The translations under genes were made by a program, and so were the position numbers. 64,000 nt of DNA from Gemmatimonadaceae bacterium (GTDB lineage: Bacteria > Gemmatimonadota > Gemmatimonadetes > Gemmatimonadales > Gemmatimonadaceae): assembly GCA_045803545.1 (NCBI GenBank), contig JBJMOW010000005.1:1024001-1088000 (forward strand). The letters are read 5' to 3'. A model generated the notes under the pieces. That model was given only the letters and a program-made list of their open reading frames with translations, was not told the origin of the DNA and searched no databases. The stretch's first letter is position 1. The number at the start of each line of letters is the position of its first letter. This document shows, one piece after another, positions 50,042-57,443 of the stretch.

Positions 50042-51247
50042 TTAGTTCTTGTCATGTGACTGCGGCATGTTCATACCCCGCATTGATTCCGATGGCCGCG
50101 CACTTATGGCGGCGCCGTACCGGCCCATCCGCATGTGCTCCATCCCAAAGCCGATCTTCATTCCCGCCGACAAACTCCAGATGGTGCTCGAACCGTAGAA
50201 CGTGCGAGGATCGAATCCGGCCGGTTGCAGTGTCGGAGCAACGCGCGCGCGCGCAACTTCGGCGAACGGCTCGTATGAGATCCTGTTAGTCGATAGCTCC
50301 ACTGCTGCGCGAGCAGTCAGAATGGTCCACCGTGACCGACCGGAGATACTCAAATCGGTCGGAGGAACTGGCGAGCGAAATTCGTTGAGCAGACGTTGCT
50401 CGTCGGGCCGCTCGGTACGCTCAATTCGAATCGCGCCATTGACGCGCTGGTACTTCGCCCAGGTTTCTGCCAGCATCGATGTGAACGCGAATATTTGGTC
50501 CGAGCCGGCGTAGTCATTGGTACGCGCCCATTCGACCAACGCGTAGCCGGAGTGCTGGTTATCCTCGAGCCGGATCGATGCGCTGTGCTTGCGCTGATCA
50601 GCGCCGCCGCCAGCCGGGTTCTCCGGCGATTTTACACGCGCGTAGCTCGTCTGCAGCTCTGCCTGAGTCCACGGCGTGTAAGACACGCGTGCAGACCAGG
50701 AATCCCAATACCGATTTTGATTCGGCACATCGCCCGGACCGGTTGGCTCATCGCCGTTGAACGAGCTGGCTTCCAAGACAAAATCGCTGACCCGCAGCGC
50801 ACCAACTGCAACCGCGCGCTCGAGGATCTGGGACAAGTGGTGATTGATCGGATACTTCTCGATCGGTCTCGCCATCGGATCGTCGGTGCCAAAGGCCGCG
50901 AAGCCCTTGCCCACAGCGAGCGAGATCGCGTTTGATCGCTCACCGCCGAACCGTGTCATCGACACCAGCATCAGCTCGTGCAGGTAAGTGTGCGGATGAC
51001 GGCGATCGACGTAACCTTCACCGTAGATCCCGGGAGTCAGCTCACCTCGCTTGATGGTGAGACCCTCGAGATTGAGTGTCGCTTTCATCGACAGCAGGTC
51101 CCGCCACGGGTTCAAGTCGAGCATCACTGCCGGCTGCGTCAGGTACCCCTCAGTAAAAGCGCGGTCGTGAACGGCAGGTGATACTCTGGTTACGACGCCA
51201 ATGGCTTGTGCGCCGACCATTAGCTGCGCGAGCAGAAAAAGAATCAA
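50042..51247 (-). CDS. Hypothetical protein, probably an outer-membrane beta-barrel, with His/Met motifs
   Basis: Alternating beta-strand pattern, DRRHPHTYLHE, NHH, Met-rich tail; start uncertain. Confidence 0.65.
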   Translation of the reverse strand: MILFLLAQLMVGAQAIGVVTRVSPAVHDRAFTEGYLTQPAVMLDLNPWRDLLSMKATLNLEGLTIKRGELTPGIYGEGYVDRRHPHTYLHELMLVSMTRFGGERSNAISLAVGKGFAAFGTDDPMARPIEKYPINHHLSQILERAVAVGALRVSDFVLEASSFNGDEPTGPGDVPNQNRYWDSWSARVSYTPWTQAELQTSYARVKSPENPAGGGADQRKHSASIRLEDNQHSGYALVEWARTNDYAGSDQIFAFTSMLAETWAKYQRVNGAIRIERTERPDEQRLLNEFRSPVPPTDLSISGRSRWTILTARAAVELSTNRISYEPFAEVARARVAPTLQPAGFDPRTFYGSSTIWSLSAGMKIGFGMEHMRMGRYGAAISARPSESMRGMNMPQSHDKN

Positions 51248-51318
51248 AGCTTTATGGGTGGCAGAGGACGCGAGTGCGGTGTATTCTTTGACTCGAATAT
51301 CGCATGGGGGAGTAACAC

Positions 51319-51921
51319 ATGGTGAAAAAGACAGCGCTCACCGCGCTCGTAGTCGCGTCGATCACGGCGTCCGGTGTCGCCGGTGCACAAGCTGCCACCG
51401 CCACAGCGGCAAGCGCTGGCCCCGCGATCAATGACCTCGCGCCTGACTTTTCGCTTACCGGCGCAGATCGTTACGGCGTCCTCAAGACCCCGGTCAAACT
51501 TTCCGACTATCGCGGCCGGACCGTCGTACTTGCCTTCTTTTTTCAGGCGCGGACCAAAGGCTGAACGATCCAAATGGAGGCGTACCGTGATCAGTACGCC
51601 ACGCTCTTCAACAACGGCCGCAACGTAACCGTCATCGGCATCAGCGTCGACCCGGACACTGCACTCGCGTCATGGGCGCGCGACGAGGATTTCCCGGTGG
51701 TGTTCGCCAGCGACCCGGGTGGAACGGTTGGCAAATCGTACGGCGCATTTGACGAGAAGAACAAACTCGACAACCGCTCGCTGTTCGTCATAAGGCCTGA
51801 TGGCCGAATCGCTTACGTAGCGAAGCCGTTCAAGGTGCTGACGCCGTCCGCATACACGGATCTTGCGGCGGTAGTGGACAGTCTCGCGCCGCCCGCCGCC
51901 AAAGGCACGTCCGACAAATAG
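51319..51921 (+). CDS. Exported AhpC/TSA (peroxiredoxin-like) selenoprotein, Sec at in-frame TGA 51562-51564 (residue 82 of 200)
   Basis: ORFs 51319-51564 and 51574-51921 are in frame; APDFSL, LSDYRG.TVVLAFF..ARTKG-TGA-T, VIGISVD, SD, RSLFVI..DG.I; SECIS-like hairpin follows. Confidence 0.85.
51579..51600 (+). promoter_or_regulatory. Candidate bacterial SECIS element
   Basis: ggcgtac-cgtgatca-gtacgcc hairpin starting 14 nt after the TGA, G at loop position 2. Confidence 0.7.
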
Positions 51922-51955
51922 AAAAGCCGCGGACTTTTGAGTCCGCGGCTTTTTT
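51922..51955. terminator. Bidirectional intrinsic terminator
   Basis: aaaagccgcggact-tttg-agtccgcggctttttt between convergent genes. Confidence 0.85.
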
Positions 51956-51990: not shown

Positions 51991-52491
51991 CTACAACGCC
52001 TTCCGGATCGCTGCGTCGAGATCCTGTTTGCCACCCAGTCCTGTGTACACAACCCTTCCGGTCTTGTCCAGCACGACGACGTACGATGTCGCCGGCGCGT
52101 CGAATGCGCCCGCAGCTTTCCCATCGGTGTCGTAAAGAGTTTCGTGCGGCAACGGATGCGCAGCCAGCCAGCGTCGGACTTTTTCCGGCGACTGATTGAT
52201 CGCGACGGCTAACGCGAGAAACTTCACTCGCTTGCCATACTTCTTTTCCGTCTCGAGAAGCGTCGGCATCAGCTCCCGGCAGTTCGGGCACCACGTAGCC
52301 CAGAACTCGATCAGCACTGGCGTCTTGCCGATGTACTTGCTGAGGTCGACTGTTTTTCCGTCGAGCGCATTCACTGTCACCGCCGGTGCCGCCGCCCCAA
52401 CGTCGATGCCAAGATCCTGCGCGCGACCCGTACCAGCCACAGCGACAACAAGTCCGCCGGCGATTGCCAGTGTCTTAACTCTGAATGCCAT
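51991..52491 (-). CDS. TlpA/ResA family exported thiol-disulfide reductase
   Basis: Signal peptide, FWATWCPNC. Confidence 0.9.
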   Translation of the reverse strand: MAFRVKTLAIAGGLVVAVAGTGRAQDLGIDVGAAAPAVTVNALDGKTVDLSKYIGKTPVLIEFWATWCPNCRELMPTLLETEKKYGKRVKFLALAVAINQSPEKVRRWLAAHPLPHETLYDTDGKAAGAFDAPATSYVVVLDKTGRVVYTGLGGKQDLDAAIRKAL

Positions 52492-52582: not shown

Positions 52583-53299
52583 CTAGATGATCAGCTGTCC
52601 CATTTGCACAAGGTAATACTCCGCAACGCCCAACATGATCAATGCAAAGATCCGCTTGATCCATAGCATCCATGTACCAGCGCGCGGTAGCCTCGCCAGC
52701 GAGCCGCTGAACAGACCCACGATTACGAGCAGCGTACACATCCCGAGCGAAAATACGAAGAGGTAGATAAAACCAAGCACTCCGCTTTTTGTCGTCGTCA
52801 CCCACGTCAGGACAGCTGCCATCACCGGCGCCGAGCAAGGCGCAGCGACCAGTCCCGACACCGCGCCCATCAGAAACACTCCGTACGGAGTCCCTCCCTC
52901 TCCAACGCTGGACGCTCGCGTCAGCAGCCACGATGGCACACTCACCGGCACCACATCCAGCATCGCCAGCGCGGCAACGATCAGAAGATTCGCCATCGCG
53001 AAGTAGAGCCACGGATTGGTGCTCACGGACCCGAACAGGGTTCCAGTCAATCCAGCGAACAATCCGAGTGACGCATAGGCCAGCGCCAGGCCGAAGACGT
53101 AAGTGAAAGTCAACAGCACTGTTCGTCCACGCGGCCTCGGTCCGATTCGAACTGAATTCCCGCCGACGATCGCCGCAGTGATGGGAATCATCGGATAGAT
53201 GCAGGGCGCCAGGCTCGTGAGCACGCCGGCGATGAAAAGAATCGGCAGCGCGGTTAGCGGATTCGATGACAACCGCTGGGAAATTCCAGTAAAGTCCAA
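52583..53299 (-). CDS. ccdA: CcdA/DsbD-type transmembrane electron transporter
   Basis: SLAPCIYPMIP and AAPCSAP, 6 TM, LPRAGTWM. Confidence 0.9.
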   Translation of the reverse strand: MDFTGISQRLSSNPLTALPILFIAGVLTSLAPCIYPMIPITAAIVGGNSVRIGPRPRGRTVLLTFTYVFGLALAYASLGLFAGLTGTLFGSVSTNPWLYFAMANLLIVAALAMLDVVPVSVPSWLLTRASSVGEGGTPYGVFLMGAVSGLVAAPCSAPVMAAVLTWVTTTKSGVLGFIYLFVFSLGMCTLLVIVGLFSGSLARLPRAGTWMLWIKRIFALIMLGVAEYYLVQMGQLII

Positions 53300-53510: not shown

Positions 53511-54326
53511 TCACTGCCTGGTCAGAATCTGCTCGAACAAATCCAGCGCTCTCGGATCCCCCGACTGCCCAAGCCAGAACATTGCTTTCTTTCTGATTTC
53601 GGGATCCTTGTTGCTCTTGGCTATCGCAATCAGCGCGGGAATTCCTTCTTCGCGCGGACGCTGTGACAGTGCGAACACTGCCTGCTCCCGCACTTCCCGA
53701 TCGACGCCATTATCGACGACGATATCCGACAGACCGCGCGTCGCCGCCTCACCTGCCGCCTGGCCTACCCAGAACACAGACTGAGTGCGCGTCGACCTTG
53801 GAAGATTATCGTTGCGCGCGAGTTTGATCAGCGAGGGCCAGACATCCGCGCTATCGACCAGCGTCACGGGAAGGATTGCCTTCTCTCCCATACTTCCGCG
53901 CTCAGTTTGGGCCACCGAGAGCAGGTAGTTGGCGATCTCGCGAGCGGGAACCATGCCAAGATCTACAACGTCTGACGCAGCCGGACGCCACCGACCGCCA
54001 ACGTAAAACCTCAGGTCGGTTATCTCACCACGCCGCCGGTCGATCACCAATCGCCCGGGACCGTGACTGCAATCGTCCTCCCACTCCACGTCGCGCGAGG
54101 TGTTCCATCTGCTGTCGCCCCACGTCATTCGGCCACGACCGCCCGAGTGCGAAATTGAATTGCCGCTGCCACAGATTTCCGGACGAACGTTGAAGGACAT
54201 CCGTACACTTCCATCCGAAACCTTTGCGACCTGACTGGCGATGCTCTGTGCCTGCGCGGCAGCCGCCGCGATGGTAGCGACGCCAATCGCCGCTGTCGCT
54301 ACCCGTGCAAATCCGCGCGCACTCAT
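53511..54326 (-). CDS. Exported HEAT-repeat protein
   Basis: Signal peptide; VREQAVFALSQ and IRKKAMFWLGQ repeats. Confidence 0.85.
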   Translation of the reverse strand: MSARGFARVATAAIGVATIAAAAAQAQSIASQVAKVSDGSVRMSFNVRPEICGSGNSISHSGGRGRMTWGDSRWNTSRDVEWEDDCSHGPGRLVIDRRRGEITDLRFYVGGRWRPAASDVVDLGMVPAREIANYLLSVAQTERGSMGEKAILPVTLVDSADVWPSLIKLARNDNLPRSTRTQSVFWVGQAAGEAATRGLSDIVVDNGVDREVREQAVFALSQRPREEGIPALIAIAKSNKDPEIRKKAMFWLGQSGDPRALDLFEQILTRQ

Positions 54327-55774
54327 TTGTTGATTAGATCGAGAAGGAACTGCTGCACGCGCGGGTCACGCGACTGACCCAGCCAGAAGATCGCCTTCTT
54401 GCGCAGGTCAGCGTCCTTCTCGGTCTTTGCAATGTCGAACATCTTGTCGATCGCCGCCGGCTCGCGCTGACGTTGCGACAGAACGAAAATGATCTGCTCC
54501 TTCATCTCGGTGTCGTTCATCCGGTCATAGAGCTGCGCCAGCTGAGGAATCGCGATCCCATTCTGACCGGCCCAGAACAACGCTTTCTTGCGCAGCTCGA
54601 TGTCTTCCTTCGTATTGAGGGCAATGTTCATCAGCCATTGATCGTTGCCCGCACCCTTCTGCTGTGACAGCGAGAACAGAATCTTTTCCTTCAAATCCTG
54701 GTCGGTGAGCCGCGTATACAGAGTGCGCAGGAACTCCGTATTGTCGCTCGAGCGGCGCTGCCCGAGCCAGAAAATCGCCTTCTCGCGCAAATCGGACGAT
54801 TCGCTCTCTCTCATTGCGAAATCGCGCAGAACCTGCTGCGCCCTCGGCTCGTTCTGCTGCGACAGCGAGAACAACGCTTTCTCCTTGATGTTCTCGTCGC
54901 CGTTGCCCTGCAGAATCTGCTCGAGCAATCCGGTCGAACCTGGAACCTGCGATAGCCAGAATACCGCCTGCTCGCGGACTTCCTGATCCGGATCGCTGCG
55001 TGCGACGTTCATCAGAATGTTCGCCGTCTCGGGCGTCCGCTTCTGCGACACCAGGAACACTGCTTTGCGACGCAGCGCTGCCGAGCATGCATCGCGGCGC
55101 TCGAGCACTTTCTTGAGGATCGGCATCGCCTGATCCGCATCCATTTGCAGCAATGCGTTCAGTGCGGCGATACGGTCGTCGTCCTCGTCGTCGTCAGATG
55201 GACAGCTGCGGCCCTGCTGCGGAGCCGTGCCGACTGTGCCGGGGTCTGCCTTCTCGGTGATGGTCCTGGCGCAGGATTCGTCACCGCGCTTCGCCAGCTC
55301 ACCGCAGACACGAGTAAAGAGAGTCGCGCCGTCTGAAGAGCTGGCAATACTTGGAAACCGAGTCTTCAATTCGTTGAGGCGATCGCGTGCGCTGCTCAGC
55401 TCGTCGTCGCCGCCGCTGCGATAAAGTGAGTAGGCCTCGTAGTACATCGCCTGGCCTGCGTACGCCGACTGCGGATAACGCTCGGGAATGCGGTGGAAGA
55501 TCTCCGCCGCACGCTTCCAGTCGCTGCGCGCCATCGCTTCTCGTGCCAGTCTGTAAAGAGAGTCAGCCGGATCTGCTTTCGCCCACGGCTCTGGGGGAAG
55601 CGGATTGGCCTGTTGATCGAGCGACTTGAACTCGTCGCTCAGTTGCGGCTGCGCGGTGCTGAATCCCAGCCGCGCAAGGCTCGAGTCAATGGTTGAAGGG
55701 CTGACCGGAGCTTTTTGCACTCCGATCGCCGACGAAATTATTGCTGCTGCCGTGAGTAGGGTTCTCATAGTCAT
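54323..55774 (-). CDS. Exported TPR plus HEAT-repeat protein
   Basis: Signal peptide, BamD-like TPR (RYPQSAYAGQAMYY), alternating KA.FWL.Q / FSLSQ repeats. Confidence 0.85.
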   Translation of the reverse strand: MTMRTLLTAAAIISSAIGVQKAPVSPSTIDSSLARLGFSTAQPQLSDEFKSLDQQANPLPPEPWAKADPADSLYRLAREAMARSDWKRAAEIFHRIPERYPQSAYAGQAMYYEAYSLYRSGGDDELSSARDRLNELKTRFPSIASSSDGATLFTRVCGELAKRGDESCARTITEKADPGTVGTAPQQGRSCPSDDDEDDDRIAALNALLQMDADQAMPILKKVLERRDACSAALRRKAVFLVSQKRTPETANILMNVARSDPDQEVREQAVFWLSQVPGSTGLLEQILQGNGDENIKEKALFSLSQQNEPRAQQVLRDFAMRESESSDLREKAIFWLGQRRSSDNTEFLRTLYTRLTDQDLKEKILFSLSQQKGAGNDQWLMNIALNTKEDIELRKKALFWAGQNGIAIPQLAQLYDRMNDTEMKEQIIFVLSQRQREPAAIDKMFDIAKTEKDADLRKKAIFWLGQSRDPRVQQFLLDLINK

Positions 55775-55784
55775 TGGAGGGTCC

Positions 55785-56627
55785 TCAACTACCATGCTGC
55801 GCGCCCGCTGGAATCGCGGTGCGCAGCCTCGTCATTACGTGGTTTTGCTGAAGCGTTTTTTCGATCAGGTCGCGATCCTGTGGCGTGCTGCCGGGCGATA
55901 GCTGCTGGACGATCTGGACTAGTACGAGCTCCAGGTCCTGCAACAACGGACGCCGCTGCGGATCGTCGCCGACTGGAGAGTCGATTAGCAGACGCGTGTT
56001 GGTGAGCAGCTGGCGGGCCCACGTGCCCAGCTGCGCATCCATCTGTTGGTCGGCACTCGAACGACTTCTGAATGAAGTAAGGAGTGCTTCTGCCTCACTG
56101 AGATTCTGCATTGCGGTGAGCTGATAGGCGGAGCTCGAACGAGTCGACGCCCGCGGTATCTCTACCGCCACGCGACTTTCAGCGCCACCAACATCAGTGT
56201 TGCGGCGCTGGCCGCCATTCGAAGTAGCGGGTTGCGGCTGATGTGAGCTCTCGCCGCCCGTCGTTGCAACCTGCGCAGGCGAGGCGCTACCGGAGTCGGT
56301 CTGATCCGGGCTTACCGTTACCGGGGGCTGTGGGATTGAAGGATTAGCTGCAACCAACGGAGCCGCTTGCGGCGCCGTCAGGCGACCGATTCCAACACCG
56401 GTTGCAATCAGCAGCATCGCTGCCGCTGCTGCCCCCAGCCATACCCGCGTTCCGAACCGTCTCTCGTGAACAGGCGACGATGCTCCGCCCCCATAGACCA
56501 CACGTGGTCCGGCCGCACGCTTCGCCTGAATCGCACTCCACATCTCTTCACGTGGAACCCGAACCGGCGGAACGTTATAGGTCTGTGTTGTCTTCTTGAG
56601 AAACTTCTCGAAATTCTCTTCAGTCAT
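55785..56627 (-). CDS. Putative single-TM anti-sigma factor
   Basis: ATGA overlap with the ECF sigma; MWSAI, one TM helix, extracytoplasmic domain. Confidence 0.72.
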   Translation of the reverse strand: MTEENFEKFLKKTTQTYNVPPVRVPREEMWSAIQAKRAAGPRVVYGGGASSPVHERRFGTRVWLGAAAAAMLLIATGVGIGRLTAPQAAPLVAANPSIPQPPVTVSPDQTDSGSASPAQVATTGGESSHQPQPATSNGGQRRNTDVGGAESRVAVEIPRASTRSSSAYQLTAMQNLSEAEALLTSFRSRSSADQQMDAQLGTWARQLLTNTRLLIDSPVGDDPQRRPLLQDLELVLVQIVQQLSPGSTPQDRDLIEKTLQQNHVMTRLRTAIPAGAQHGS

Positions 56628-57199
56628 GACACCCACTCCGGTGCAAAGTCCGCCAGCATGACGCGCAGTTTGCTTCTCGCTTGAAACAGGTGCGACTTCG
56701 ATGTCCCGATCGGGATTCCCATCGCTTCGCTGATCTCTTCGTGCGTGTAGCCTTCCACGTCGTGCATCACGAACACTGTTCTGTATTTCTCCGCCAGCGA
56801 GTCGATTGCTCTCGCCAGTCTCTCCTTCAGATCCGGCTCCGCCTCTTGTCTGGCGAAACCAACCGTTATTCCCTCTTCAATCGGCGCTTCCCGACTACGC
56901 TGACGCTTCGTTTTTCTCAAACCGTTCAGCGTCACCGAGAGACCGATCGAGTGCAACCAGGTCGACAACGATGATTCCCCGCGAAAGCCGCCGATCTTCT
57001 CGAATGCCCGGATAAACGTCGCCTGCGTGAAATCACGCGCCAGCTCGTCGTCACCCGCCAGCCGGAACGTCAGCCGGTAGATCCGATCAACATATGTCTC
57101 GTATAACTCACGCTCGGCGGCCGCATCGCCAGCAACCACACGCGTGATGAGTTGGGTATCGTTCACCGAGCTCCGAGACTCGTAGGCAACCAGTTGCAT
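56624..57199 (-). CDS. ECF RNA polymerase sigma factor
   Basis: DFTQATF, FRGESSLSTWL, VFVMHDVEGYTHEEI, GTSKS.L..AR. Confidence 0.93.
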   Translation of the reverse strand: MQLVAYESRSSVNDTQLITRVVAGDAAAERELYETYVDRIYRLTFRLAGDDELARDFTQATFIRAFEKIGGFRGESSLSTWLHSIGLSVTLNGLRKTKRQRSREAPIEEGITVGFARQEAEPDLKERLARAIDSLAEKYRTVFVMHDVEGYTHEEISEAMGIPIGTSKSHLFQARSKLRVMLADFAPEWVS

Positions 57200-57210
57200 T
57201 GTCGAACTTC

Positions 57211-57236
57211 TGACAATGGTTGGGGGGAAAGGGTTG
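57211..57236 (-). promoter_or_regulatory. Candidate autoregulated ECF promoter AACC-N15-TTGTC
   Basis: Minus strand caacc ctttccccccaacca ttgtca just upstream of the sigma ATG. Confidence 0.55.
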
Positions 57237-57280
57237 AGGTTCCCATTAAGGGCGGCGTAGAGGCCTCGGCACGTAGTTAC

Positions 57281-57443
57281 CAATCACAAAACAAAAGCCC
57301 GGAGCTACCGGCGAGGCAGCTAGTTAGCGCCGAGCACGGTTGAAAGCACGCTTCAATAGATCGCGCGCCGCGAAAAAATCAAACCGCGCTCGGCGCTTAG
57401 CTGCTCCCAAAGCTGGTAGCTCAGGGCTTTTGTTTTGTGATTG
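57281..57443. repeat. 163-bp imperfect palindrome (MITE/REP-like element or structured RNA)
   Basis: 32-bp terminal inverted repeats with 2 mismatches, plus nested 7-bp and 16-bp stems. Confidence 0.8.

Follow-up and report, generated by a model that had tools for sequence, protein, structure and literature searches.

A predicted exported peroxiredoxin-type selenoprotein of Gemmatimonadetes with phenylalanine at the position of the motif proline

Bacterial peroxiredoxins that carry selenocysteine (Sec) in a TxxU motif are a known selenoprotein family (PMC1088965, PMC13188914), and excerpts of a review describe their PxxxTxxU motif as highly conserved (PMC13188914). Excerpts of three papers describe the motif proline as absolutely conserved, or as mandatory in any functional peroxiredoxin (PMC4749874, PMC3013668, PMC3322552). 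One of these describes PprX of Caulobacter crescentus, an exported BCP/PrxQ-like peroxiredoxin that is reduced by TlpA, itself fed by the DsbD-family protein ScsB (Cho et al. 2012, PMC3322552). Our literature search, conducted mostly without full texts, found no description of a Gemmatimonadetes Sec-peroxiredoxin family or of loss of the motif proline. In the part of the 2016 survey supplement consulted, the sole entry for the phylum is Gemmatimonas aurantiaca, given as Sec-negative, and the portions of the deep-Sep supplements searched do not mention the phylum. The input table of BSepDB (2026), in the part consulted, includes Gemmatimonadota genomes, so the genes may already be catalogued there as peroxiredoxin selenoproteins.

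Here we analyse a gene in a 64,000-nucleotide stretch of Gemmatimonadaceae DNA, the whole of which we call the window. We put a probability of about 0.8 on the reading that two listed ORFs are one gene, that its UGA very likely encodes Sec, and that the product is a predicted exported, one-selenium, peroxiredoxin-type peroxidase recharged by CcdA–TlpA.

The interrupted frame and its product

Taken as a stop, the TGA at 51562-51564 divides the frame into ORFs of 81 and 115 amino acids. It is the sole in-frame stop inside a frame that runs from an ATG at 51319 to a TAG at 51919-51921 (context AFFFQARTKG*TIQM), and an earlier interpretation made from the DNA letters alone (the sequence-only reading), which had joined the two ORFs into one frame, agrees with the sequence on this point. 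Translation also bears out its description of the joined product as 200 amino acids long, devoid of Cys and carrying the Arg of RSLFVI. The gene has the following features:

51306-51312, plus strand: Shine-Dalgarno-like GGGGGAG before the ATG (sequence)
51319-51921, plus strand: full ORF, 200 amino acids with TGA taken as Sec (U82), AhpC-TSA/peroxiredoxin fold (PF00578, E 8e-29; AlphaFold pLDDT 95; AhpE 1xxu, TM 0.82)
51319-51387, plus strand: predicted signal peptide (MVKK, hydrophobic core, AGA-Q cut), judged by eye
51541-51543, plus strand: Phe75, where PxxxT/SxxC has Pro (alignment to 2ywn and AhpE)
51553-51555, plus strand: Thr79 of TxxU (T 93, S 5, G 1 in 99 Sec genes)
51562-51564, plus strand: TGA at the peroxidatic position, Sec82 (sequence, alignment, conservation, sequencing contigs)
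51673-51675, plus strand: Trp119, invariant, aligned with the active-site Trp/Phe position of peroxiredoxins (alignment)
51775-51777, plus strand: catalytic Arg153, in DNRSLFVI (invariant in alignment A1; aligns with the peroxiredoxin Arg)

The match of the joined protein to PF00578 lies over the cut-off. In alignments with solved peroxiredoxins, the TGA codon falls on the peroxidatic Cys of the AhpE/BCP peroxiredoxins. Thr79 and Arg153 match the Thr of the motif and the catalytic Arg, respectively, and Phe75 occupies the place of the Pro of PxxxTxxC; the replacement of this Pro by Phe had been suspected in the sequence-only reading and is confirmed. An AlphaFold model of residues 34-189, computed with Cys substituted for Sec (pLDDT 95), has AhpE and Bcp4 as its top fold matches, about equally near (TM 0.82-0.85, Foldseek probability 1.00). 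None of the NCBIfam peroxiredoxin models reaches its cut-off (PrxU NF040737, 65.2 versus 270 bits; BCP, 57.6 versus 140 bits). Set against the PREX definition of a peroxiredoxin, the protein has the fold, the Thr/Ser, Sec at the catalytic position and the Arg, and lacks the Pro of PxxxT/SxxC (F75). It is predicted to act like an exported 1-Cys-type peroxiredoxin, yet falls outside the strict Pro criterion.

In the 99 TGA-containing genes inspected (the Sec genes), a hydrophobic upstream window, judged by hydrophobicity, is found in 98, the T or S of T/SxxC is kept in 98 and the catalytic domain is free of Cys in 98; the Arg motif was located in 97. Homologues in databases bear the names of Gemmatimonadaceae and relatives. 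The two other peroxiredoxins of this genome are without a signal peptide and keep the Pro. Divergent from the gene, on the minus strand at 50042-51247 of the window, is a 401-amino-acid protein with His-rich motifs and without a Pfam or NCBIfam match, which adjoins 12 of 30 close loci.

Selenocysteine machinery, the TGA codon and the hairpin

The sel genes, whose presence the sequence-only reading had proposed as a check, are found in the genome (93% complete): selA (561 bits), selB (356), selD (379) and tRNA-Sec (selC, 65) all score over cut-off. The selD gene (G000:C3:40928-42120; L009, L014) has its own in-frame TGA (CAG-U-ASK) and a hairpin, GGTC-CGGGT-GACC, the loop of which (CGGGU, at +16) starts similarly to that of the peroxiredoxin gene; selD is immediately followed, on the same strand, by tRNA-Sec.

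The TGA is no sequencing error: it is covered with 0 differences by a DNA contig that is possibly from the source sample (X1) and by a contig from an RNA library of another study (X5). The gene is also matched at 100% by RNA-library contigs from three studies, although contigs do not reveal whether or how strongly a gene is transcribed. Several assembled contigs end inside the SECIS (51569-51614 of the window), and in one soil RNA library a 47-nt contig over the SECIS reaches a depth of 75, which would fit a stretch common to many species.

A search of homologues for Cys or TGA at this position, also suggested beforehand, returned both. Among 61 relatives, every one of the 46 matches with E <= 4e-40 carries the TGA; the other 15, which match more weakly and have no stop, are Cys paralogues. 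Of 261 genomes drawn from the phylum, 207 gave a match at E <= 1e-38, and the stop column of the tables splits these into 174 with a TGA-containing match and 33 without (30 of the 33 confirmed as Cys from the locus). selA is present in 172 of the 174 TGA genomes versus 1 of the 33 others, in a tally of related, non-independent genomes that takes in one unpublished genome (G197) on which nothing rests. Both TGA genomes that lack selA are fragmented assemblies with selB and tRNA-Sec. G078 (locus L110) is the sole Cys-only genome among the 33 with selA, selB and tRNA-Sec.

At the DNA level, the close loci number 135, comprising 99 TGA and 36 Cys genes, a distant paralogue (L056) having been dropped from 37 Cys loci. 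All 99 TGA genes have the TGA at the identical peroxidatic (Cp) codon, down to about 48% identity, and all 36 close orthologues of the other kind have Cys there. A search of genome contigs for related loci yielded five close ones, all with TGA; 20 distant loci were left out.

Downstream of the TGA lies one further element:

51579-51600, plus strand: SECIS-type hairpin G-GCGTAC-CGTGATCA-GTACGC-C, core 51580-51599, over codons AYRDQYA (folding and conservation)

The sequence-only reading described this as a perfect 7-bp hairpin. Its position and pairing stand (it begins 14 nt past the TGA, with the loop beginning at +21), but the outer, seventh pair is not conserved (GC 28, CG 12, TA 5, TG 1 and non-pairing 23; n = 69), whereas the inner 6-bp stem is intact in 99 of 99 TGA genes, including one with a double compensatory change (L125) and one with a G-U pair. 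The stem of 6-7 bp, the 8-nt loop CGUGAUCA and the +21 spacing lie within the bacterial SECIS criteria set out in a figure legend (PMC13188914). The loop rule stated in the consulted part of the same source is G[G/U] (PMC13188914), and the loop variants CGUG and CGGG fit it. The loops in the 99 genes are CGTGATCA (91), CGGGATCA (5) and CGTGACCA (3). In 69 Sec genes, fixation at the third positions of the six hairpin codons (+6 to +11) reaches 97-100%. It is 39-90% at the remaining synonymous sites in the flanks, and the corresponding codons of 20 Cys orthologues show 45-65%.

The hairpin is significant because it is conserved; as a single sequence it does not rise above chance (z = -1.14; 25 of 200 shuffles fold as well). 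Given this z value and the number of TGA-interrupted frames in the genome that pass a loose bacterial-SECIS filter (723, or 143 with a stricter loop filter), hairpin stability was rejected as evidence. A de novo scan of the selenoproteome by hairpin alone was too noisy, with only selD and the peroxiredoxin gene recognised among the 143 rows.

We conclude that the UGA is almost certainly read as Sec, as the sequence-only reading held: the sel genes are present, the codon is conserved in 99 of 99 genes, Cys stands at its position in 36 close orthologues, and conservation of the hairpin is confined to genes with the TGA. Were the TGA instead a true stop (in a pseudogene, a split gene or a sequencing error), or read as another amino acid, this would fit the output of gene callers, which routinely split Sec-peroxiredoxin genes of Gemmatimonadetes (C-terminal fragments are 60 of 120 among the database matches listed), and four full-length records among the matches listed in which Trp or Leu stands in for Sec. 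Such a reading is very improbable in view of the same TGA in 99 genes, the frozen hairpin, the strict co-occurrence with the Sec machinery and the agreement of independent contigs, and the downstream fragment would have neither a Cys nor a signal peptide. Database entries of the family that show Trp or Leu in place of Sec (P0002, P0050, P0029, P0046 and P0131) probably represent mis-translated or read-error TGA codons.

The motif proline and its association with selenocysteine

Position 75 is, the catalytic column aside, the column that best separates the Sec from the Cys forms. In the 99 Sec genes it is F in 48, Y in 36, I in 3, V in 2 and P in 10; it is thus non-Pro in 89, with 84 of these 89 replacements being aromatic. 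In every one of the 36 close Cys genes it is P. The Cys form seems almost to require Pro; for the Sec form it seems optional, and an aromatic residue usually takes its place.

Since this Pro is held to be mandatory, canonical activity of the Pro-less enzyme is not guaranteed. Sec may be inserted into a protein that is not a general peroxide scavenger; it might, for example, specialise in peroxynitrite or lipid hydroperoxides, or act in the envelope as a redox sensor or relay. The loss of the defining Pro in most Sec genes, the scores below every NCBIfam peroxiredoxin cut-off and the retention by the genome of two canonical peroxiredoxins without signal peptides would suit such a role. We nevertheless think it improbable, given the retained Thr/Ser and Arg, the full peroxiredoxin fold and the existence of close orthologues, at 50-74% identity, with a canonical PxxxTxxC, and we retain the peroxidase reading.

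Trees were built with the Sec/Cys and Pro-position codons masked and are unrooted. Monophyly of the Sec forms is rejected (AU test, p = 0.00055), and the masked trees require 7-16 switches between Sec and Cys. The near-identical 20-nt SECIS across the class leads us to infer, on these unrooted trees, one gain of Sec followed by reversions to Cys. In an 80-row protein tree, about 4 of 5 supported contrasts go in the same direction and 0 in the opposite one (p = 0.125); because of this p value, loci were added and the analysis was repeated. A hand-thinned, 101-row protein tree has 16 switches, 7 of them forced by strong branches (median p = 0.031, range 0.031-0.219). An unthinned, 135-row DNA tree, in which the SECIS was also masked, has 10 switches in all bootstrap trees, 7 of them forced (median p = 0.031, range 0.016-0.063). 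In each of these two larger trees, 5.8 of the 7 supported contrasts go the same way and 0 go the opposite way, with about 6 informative pairs. A first tree of 157 rows was a quick tree only and was left out of the conclusions.

Within two genera (g59 and g39), Sec goes with Y or F in genomes that have selA, and Cys goes with P in those without it; in a third (g15), P occurs in both states. Among the database matches listed, 3 of 54 Cys proteins combine Cys with Phe. These exceptions to the Pro–Cys coupling (P0055, P0098 and P0099; FFFKARTSGC) have an eroded SECIS peptide, with His at the +2 residue in two and Arg in one. More distantly, 6 of 83 parsed Cys proteins among 150 representatives are non-Pro (19 unparsed, 45 fragments). 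Three loci of one genus (L083, L107 and L111; g20) have a Cys-peroxiredoxin followed in tandem by a Sec-peroxiredoxin, the Sec copies of which keep Pro.

We give an even chance to a history in which a class-wide exported selenoperoxiredoxin swapped the motif Pro for an aromatic residue, and lineages losing the Sec machinery independently re-evolved Pro while reverting Sec to Cys; a change from Phe or Tyr to Pro takes two nucleotide substitutions. The association of Pro with Cys need not be functional epistasis; it could instead stem from selection relaxed by Sec, common descent of a small number of Cys lineages, errors in the trees, or Cys paralogues acting as donors in gene conversion. The supported contrasts are few (5-7), the taxa of the protein trees were hand-picked once the pattern had been seen, Cys and Sec copies do occur in tandem in one genus, and both Cys+Phe and Sec+Pro forms exist. 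Against this, the unthinned 135-locus DNA tree, with codons and SECIS masked, keeps its 10 switches in all bootstrap trees without an opposite contrast, and the Pro replacements are overwhelmingly aromatic. Moreover, when Cys genes are compared with their paired Sec relatives, residues specific to the family persist in the flanks and identity does not dip consistently at the active site; this is a weak test and thus a weak argument against gene conversion. We regard these alternatives, taken together, as rather unlikely.

For the coupling itself, we lean slightly towards a chemical explanation drawn from the sequence comparisons: a selenolate would need no Pro, and the aromatic side chain may shield it, whereas the Cys enzyme would need Pro. 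If Pro did re-evolve with Cys, the family would be a repeated natural experiment marking Pro as a sulfur-specific catalytic aid, and one neighbouring residue would tune the active site for selenium versus sulfur. It has long been asked why enzymes use selenium over sulfur and what else must change when they switch, and nature offers few matched pairs for the comparison. Sec and Cys orthologues at 55-74% identity occur in this family in all four combinations of Pro or aromatic with Cys or Sec, so the question becomes directly testable among close orthologues. The Pro-less family also breaks the motif that databases use to filter functional peroxiredoxins.

CcdA–TlpA neighbours and relation to known systems

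Three features follow the peroxiredoxin gene:

51922-51953, no strand assigned: 14-bp hairpin with an A-run before and a T-run after it, between convergent genes; likely bidirectional terminator (folding, sequence)
51991-52491, minus strand: exported TlpA/ResA-like thioredoxin (WCPNC), candidate reductant (domain search, synteny)
52583-53299, minus strand: CcdA/DsbD transmembrane electron transporter (PF02683, E 7e-48; synteny)

Upstream of ccdA, on the same strand (53511-57283 of the window), are an ECF sigma factor, a putative anti-sigma factor and two HEAT-repeat proteins; this region is a possible regulator of envelope redox genes.

With no Cys in the catalytic domain, resolution of the oxidised Sec must come from a thiol outside the protein. 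In the mechanism we propose, SelB would bind the hairpin and deliver Sec-tRNA at the UGA, 21 nt ahead of the loop, and the protein would reach the periplasm by way of its predicted signal peptide. There, by analogy with peroxiredoxin chemistry, Thr79 and Arg153 would hold Sec82, which would become a selenenic acid on reducing H2O2 or an organic peroxide. The resolving thiol would most likely be that of the WCPNC TlpA, to which CcdA would pass electrons from thioredoxin in the cytoplasm.

Synteny and the Caulobacter analogy make the neighbouring TlpA the probable electron donor. A tlpA in convergent orientation, not co-transcribed with the peroxiredoxin gene, lies downstream of 49 of the 99 Sec genes, in seven families; this neighbour is absent at the other 50 and at all close Cys genes (flanks of 1.5-2.5 kb, a few cut by contig ends). 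Distant exported Cys-peroxiredoxin paralogues (L061, L062, L063, L065 and L066; family f2) lie directly downstream of tlpA on the same strand, in an operon-like arrangement, and ccdA was also detected at four of these five, a second link of the CcdA–TlpA relay with an exported peroxiredoxin.

Alternatively, a small thiol or another envelope thioredoxin could recycle the Sec peroxidase while CcdA–TlpA serves cytochrome c maturation or other clients. The convergent orientation with a terminator between the genes, the many Sec genes without a TlpA neighbour, a second TlpA/CcmG-like protein in the genome and the best NCBIfam match of the neighbouring thioredoxin (ResA, under cut-off) all suit this arrangement, which we consider possible but doubtful. 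Adjacency to tlpA is nonetheless kept across seven families, and in a second peroxiredoxin lineage the gene directly follows tlpA. The genome has its ccmE/ccmF-like genes and another DsbD at other places, this DsbD and the second TlpA/CcmG-like protein may serve the other clients, and transfer from TlpA to PprX offers a precedent, as described in the consulted part of the Caulobacter study (PMC3322552). The TlpA reading suggests a CcdA–TlpA–selenoperoxidase route of peroxide removal in the Gemmatimonadetes envelope.

Sec-peroxiredoxins and envelope peroxiredoxins are already known as classes; the additions here are the Pro replacement coupled to Sec and the probable CcdA–TlpA link. Like the bacterial Sec-peroxiredoxins (PF00578/COG1225), as excerpts describe them for the prototype PrxU of Eubacterium acidaminophilum (NF040737), the present gene has TxxU, an in-frame UGA with a downstream SECIS and an AhpC-TSA domain. 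It differs from them in that Pro is mostly absent, a signal peptide is predicted and there is no Cys, and it scores 65 versus 270 bits on NF040737. Like PprX, as partially consulted, it is a peroxiredoxin, here possibly BCP/PrxQ-like, that is exported (here by prediction) and accompanied by TlpA and a DsbD-family protein, the donor link here being drawn from synteny. PprX, however, uses Cys, in a PXXXTXXC motif, and also has a resolving Cys, whereas the present protein has Sec, no Pro, no resolving Cys, and CcdA in place of ScsB. The best sequence and fold matches are the 1-Cys peroxiredoxin AhpE of Mycobacterium tuberculosis (1xxu) and Sulfolobus Bcp4 (2ywn), at about 31% identity and TM 0.82-0.85. 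AhpE is mycothiol-dependent (compare the PDB title of 5id2) and, as here, has a single catalytic residue. Both AhpE and Bcp4 keep Pro and Cys and are without an N-terminal extension; the gene described here differs in all three.
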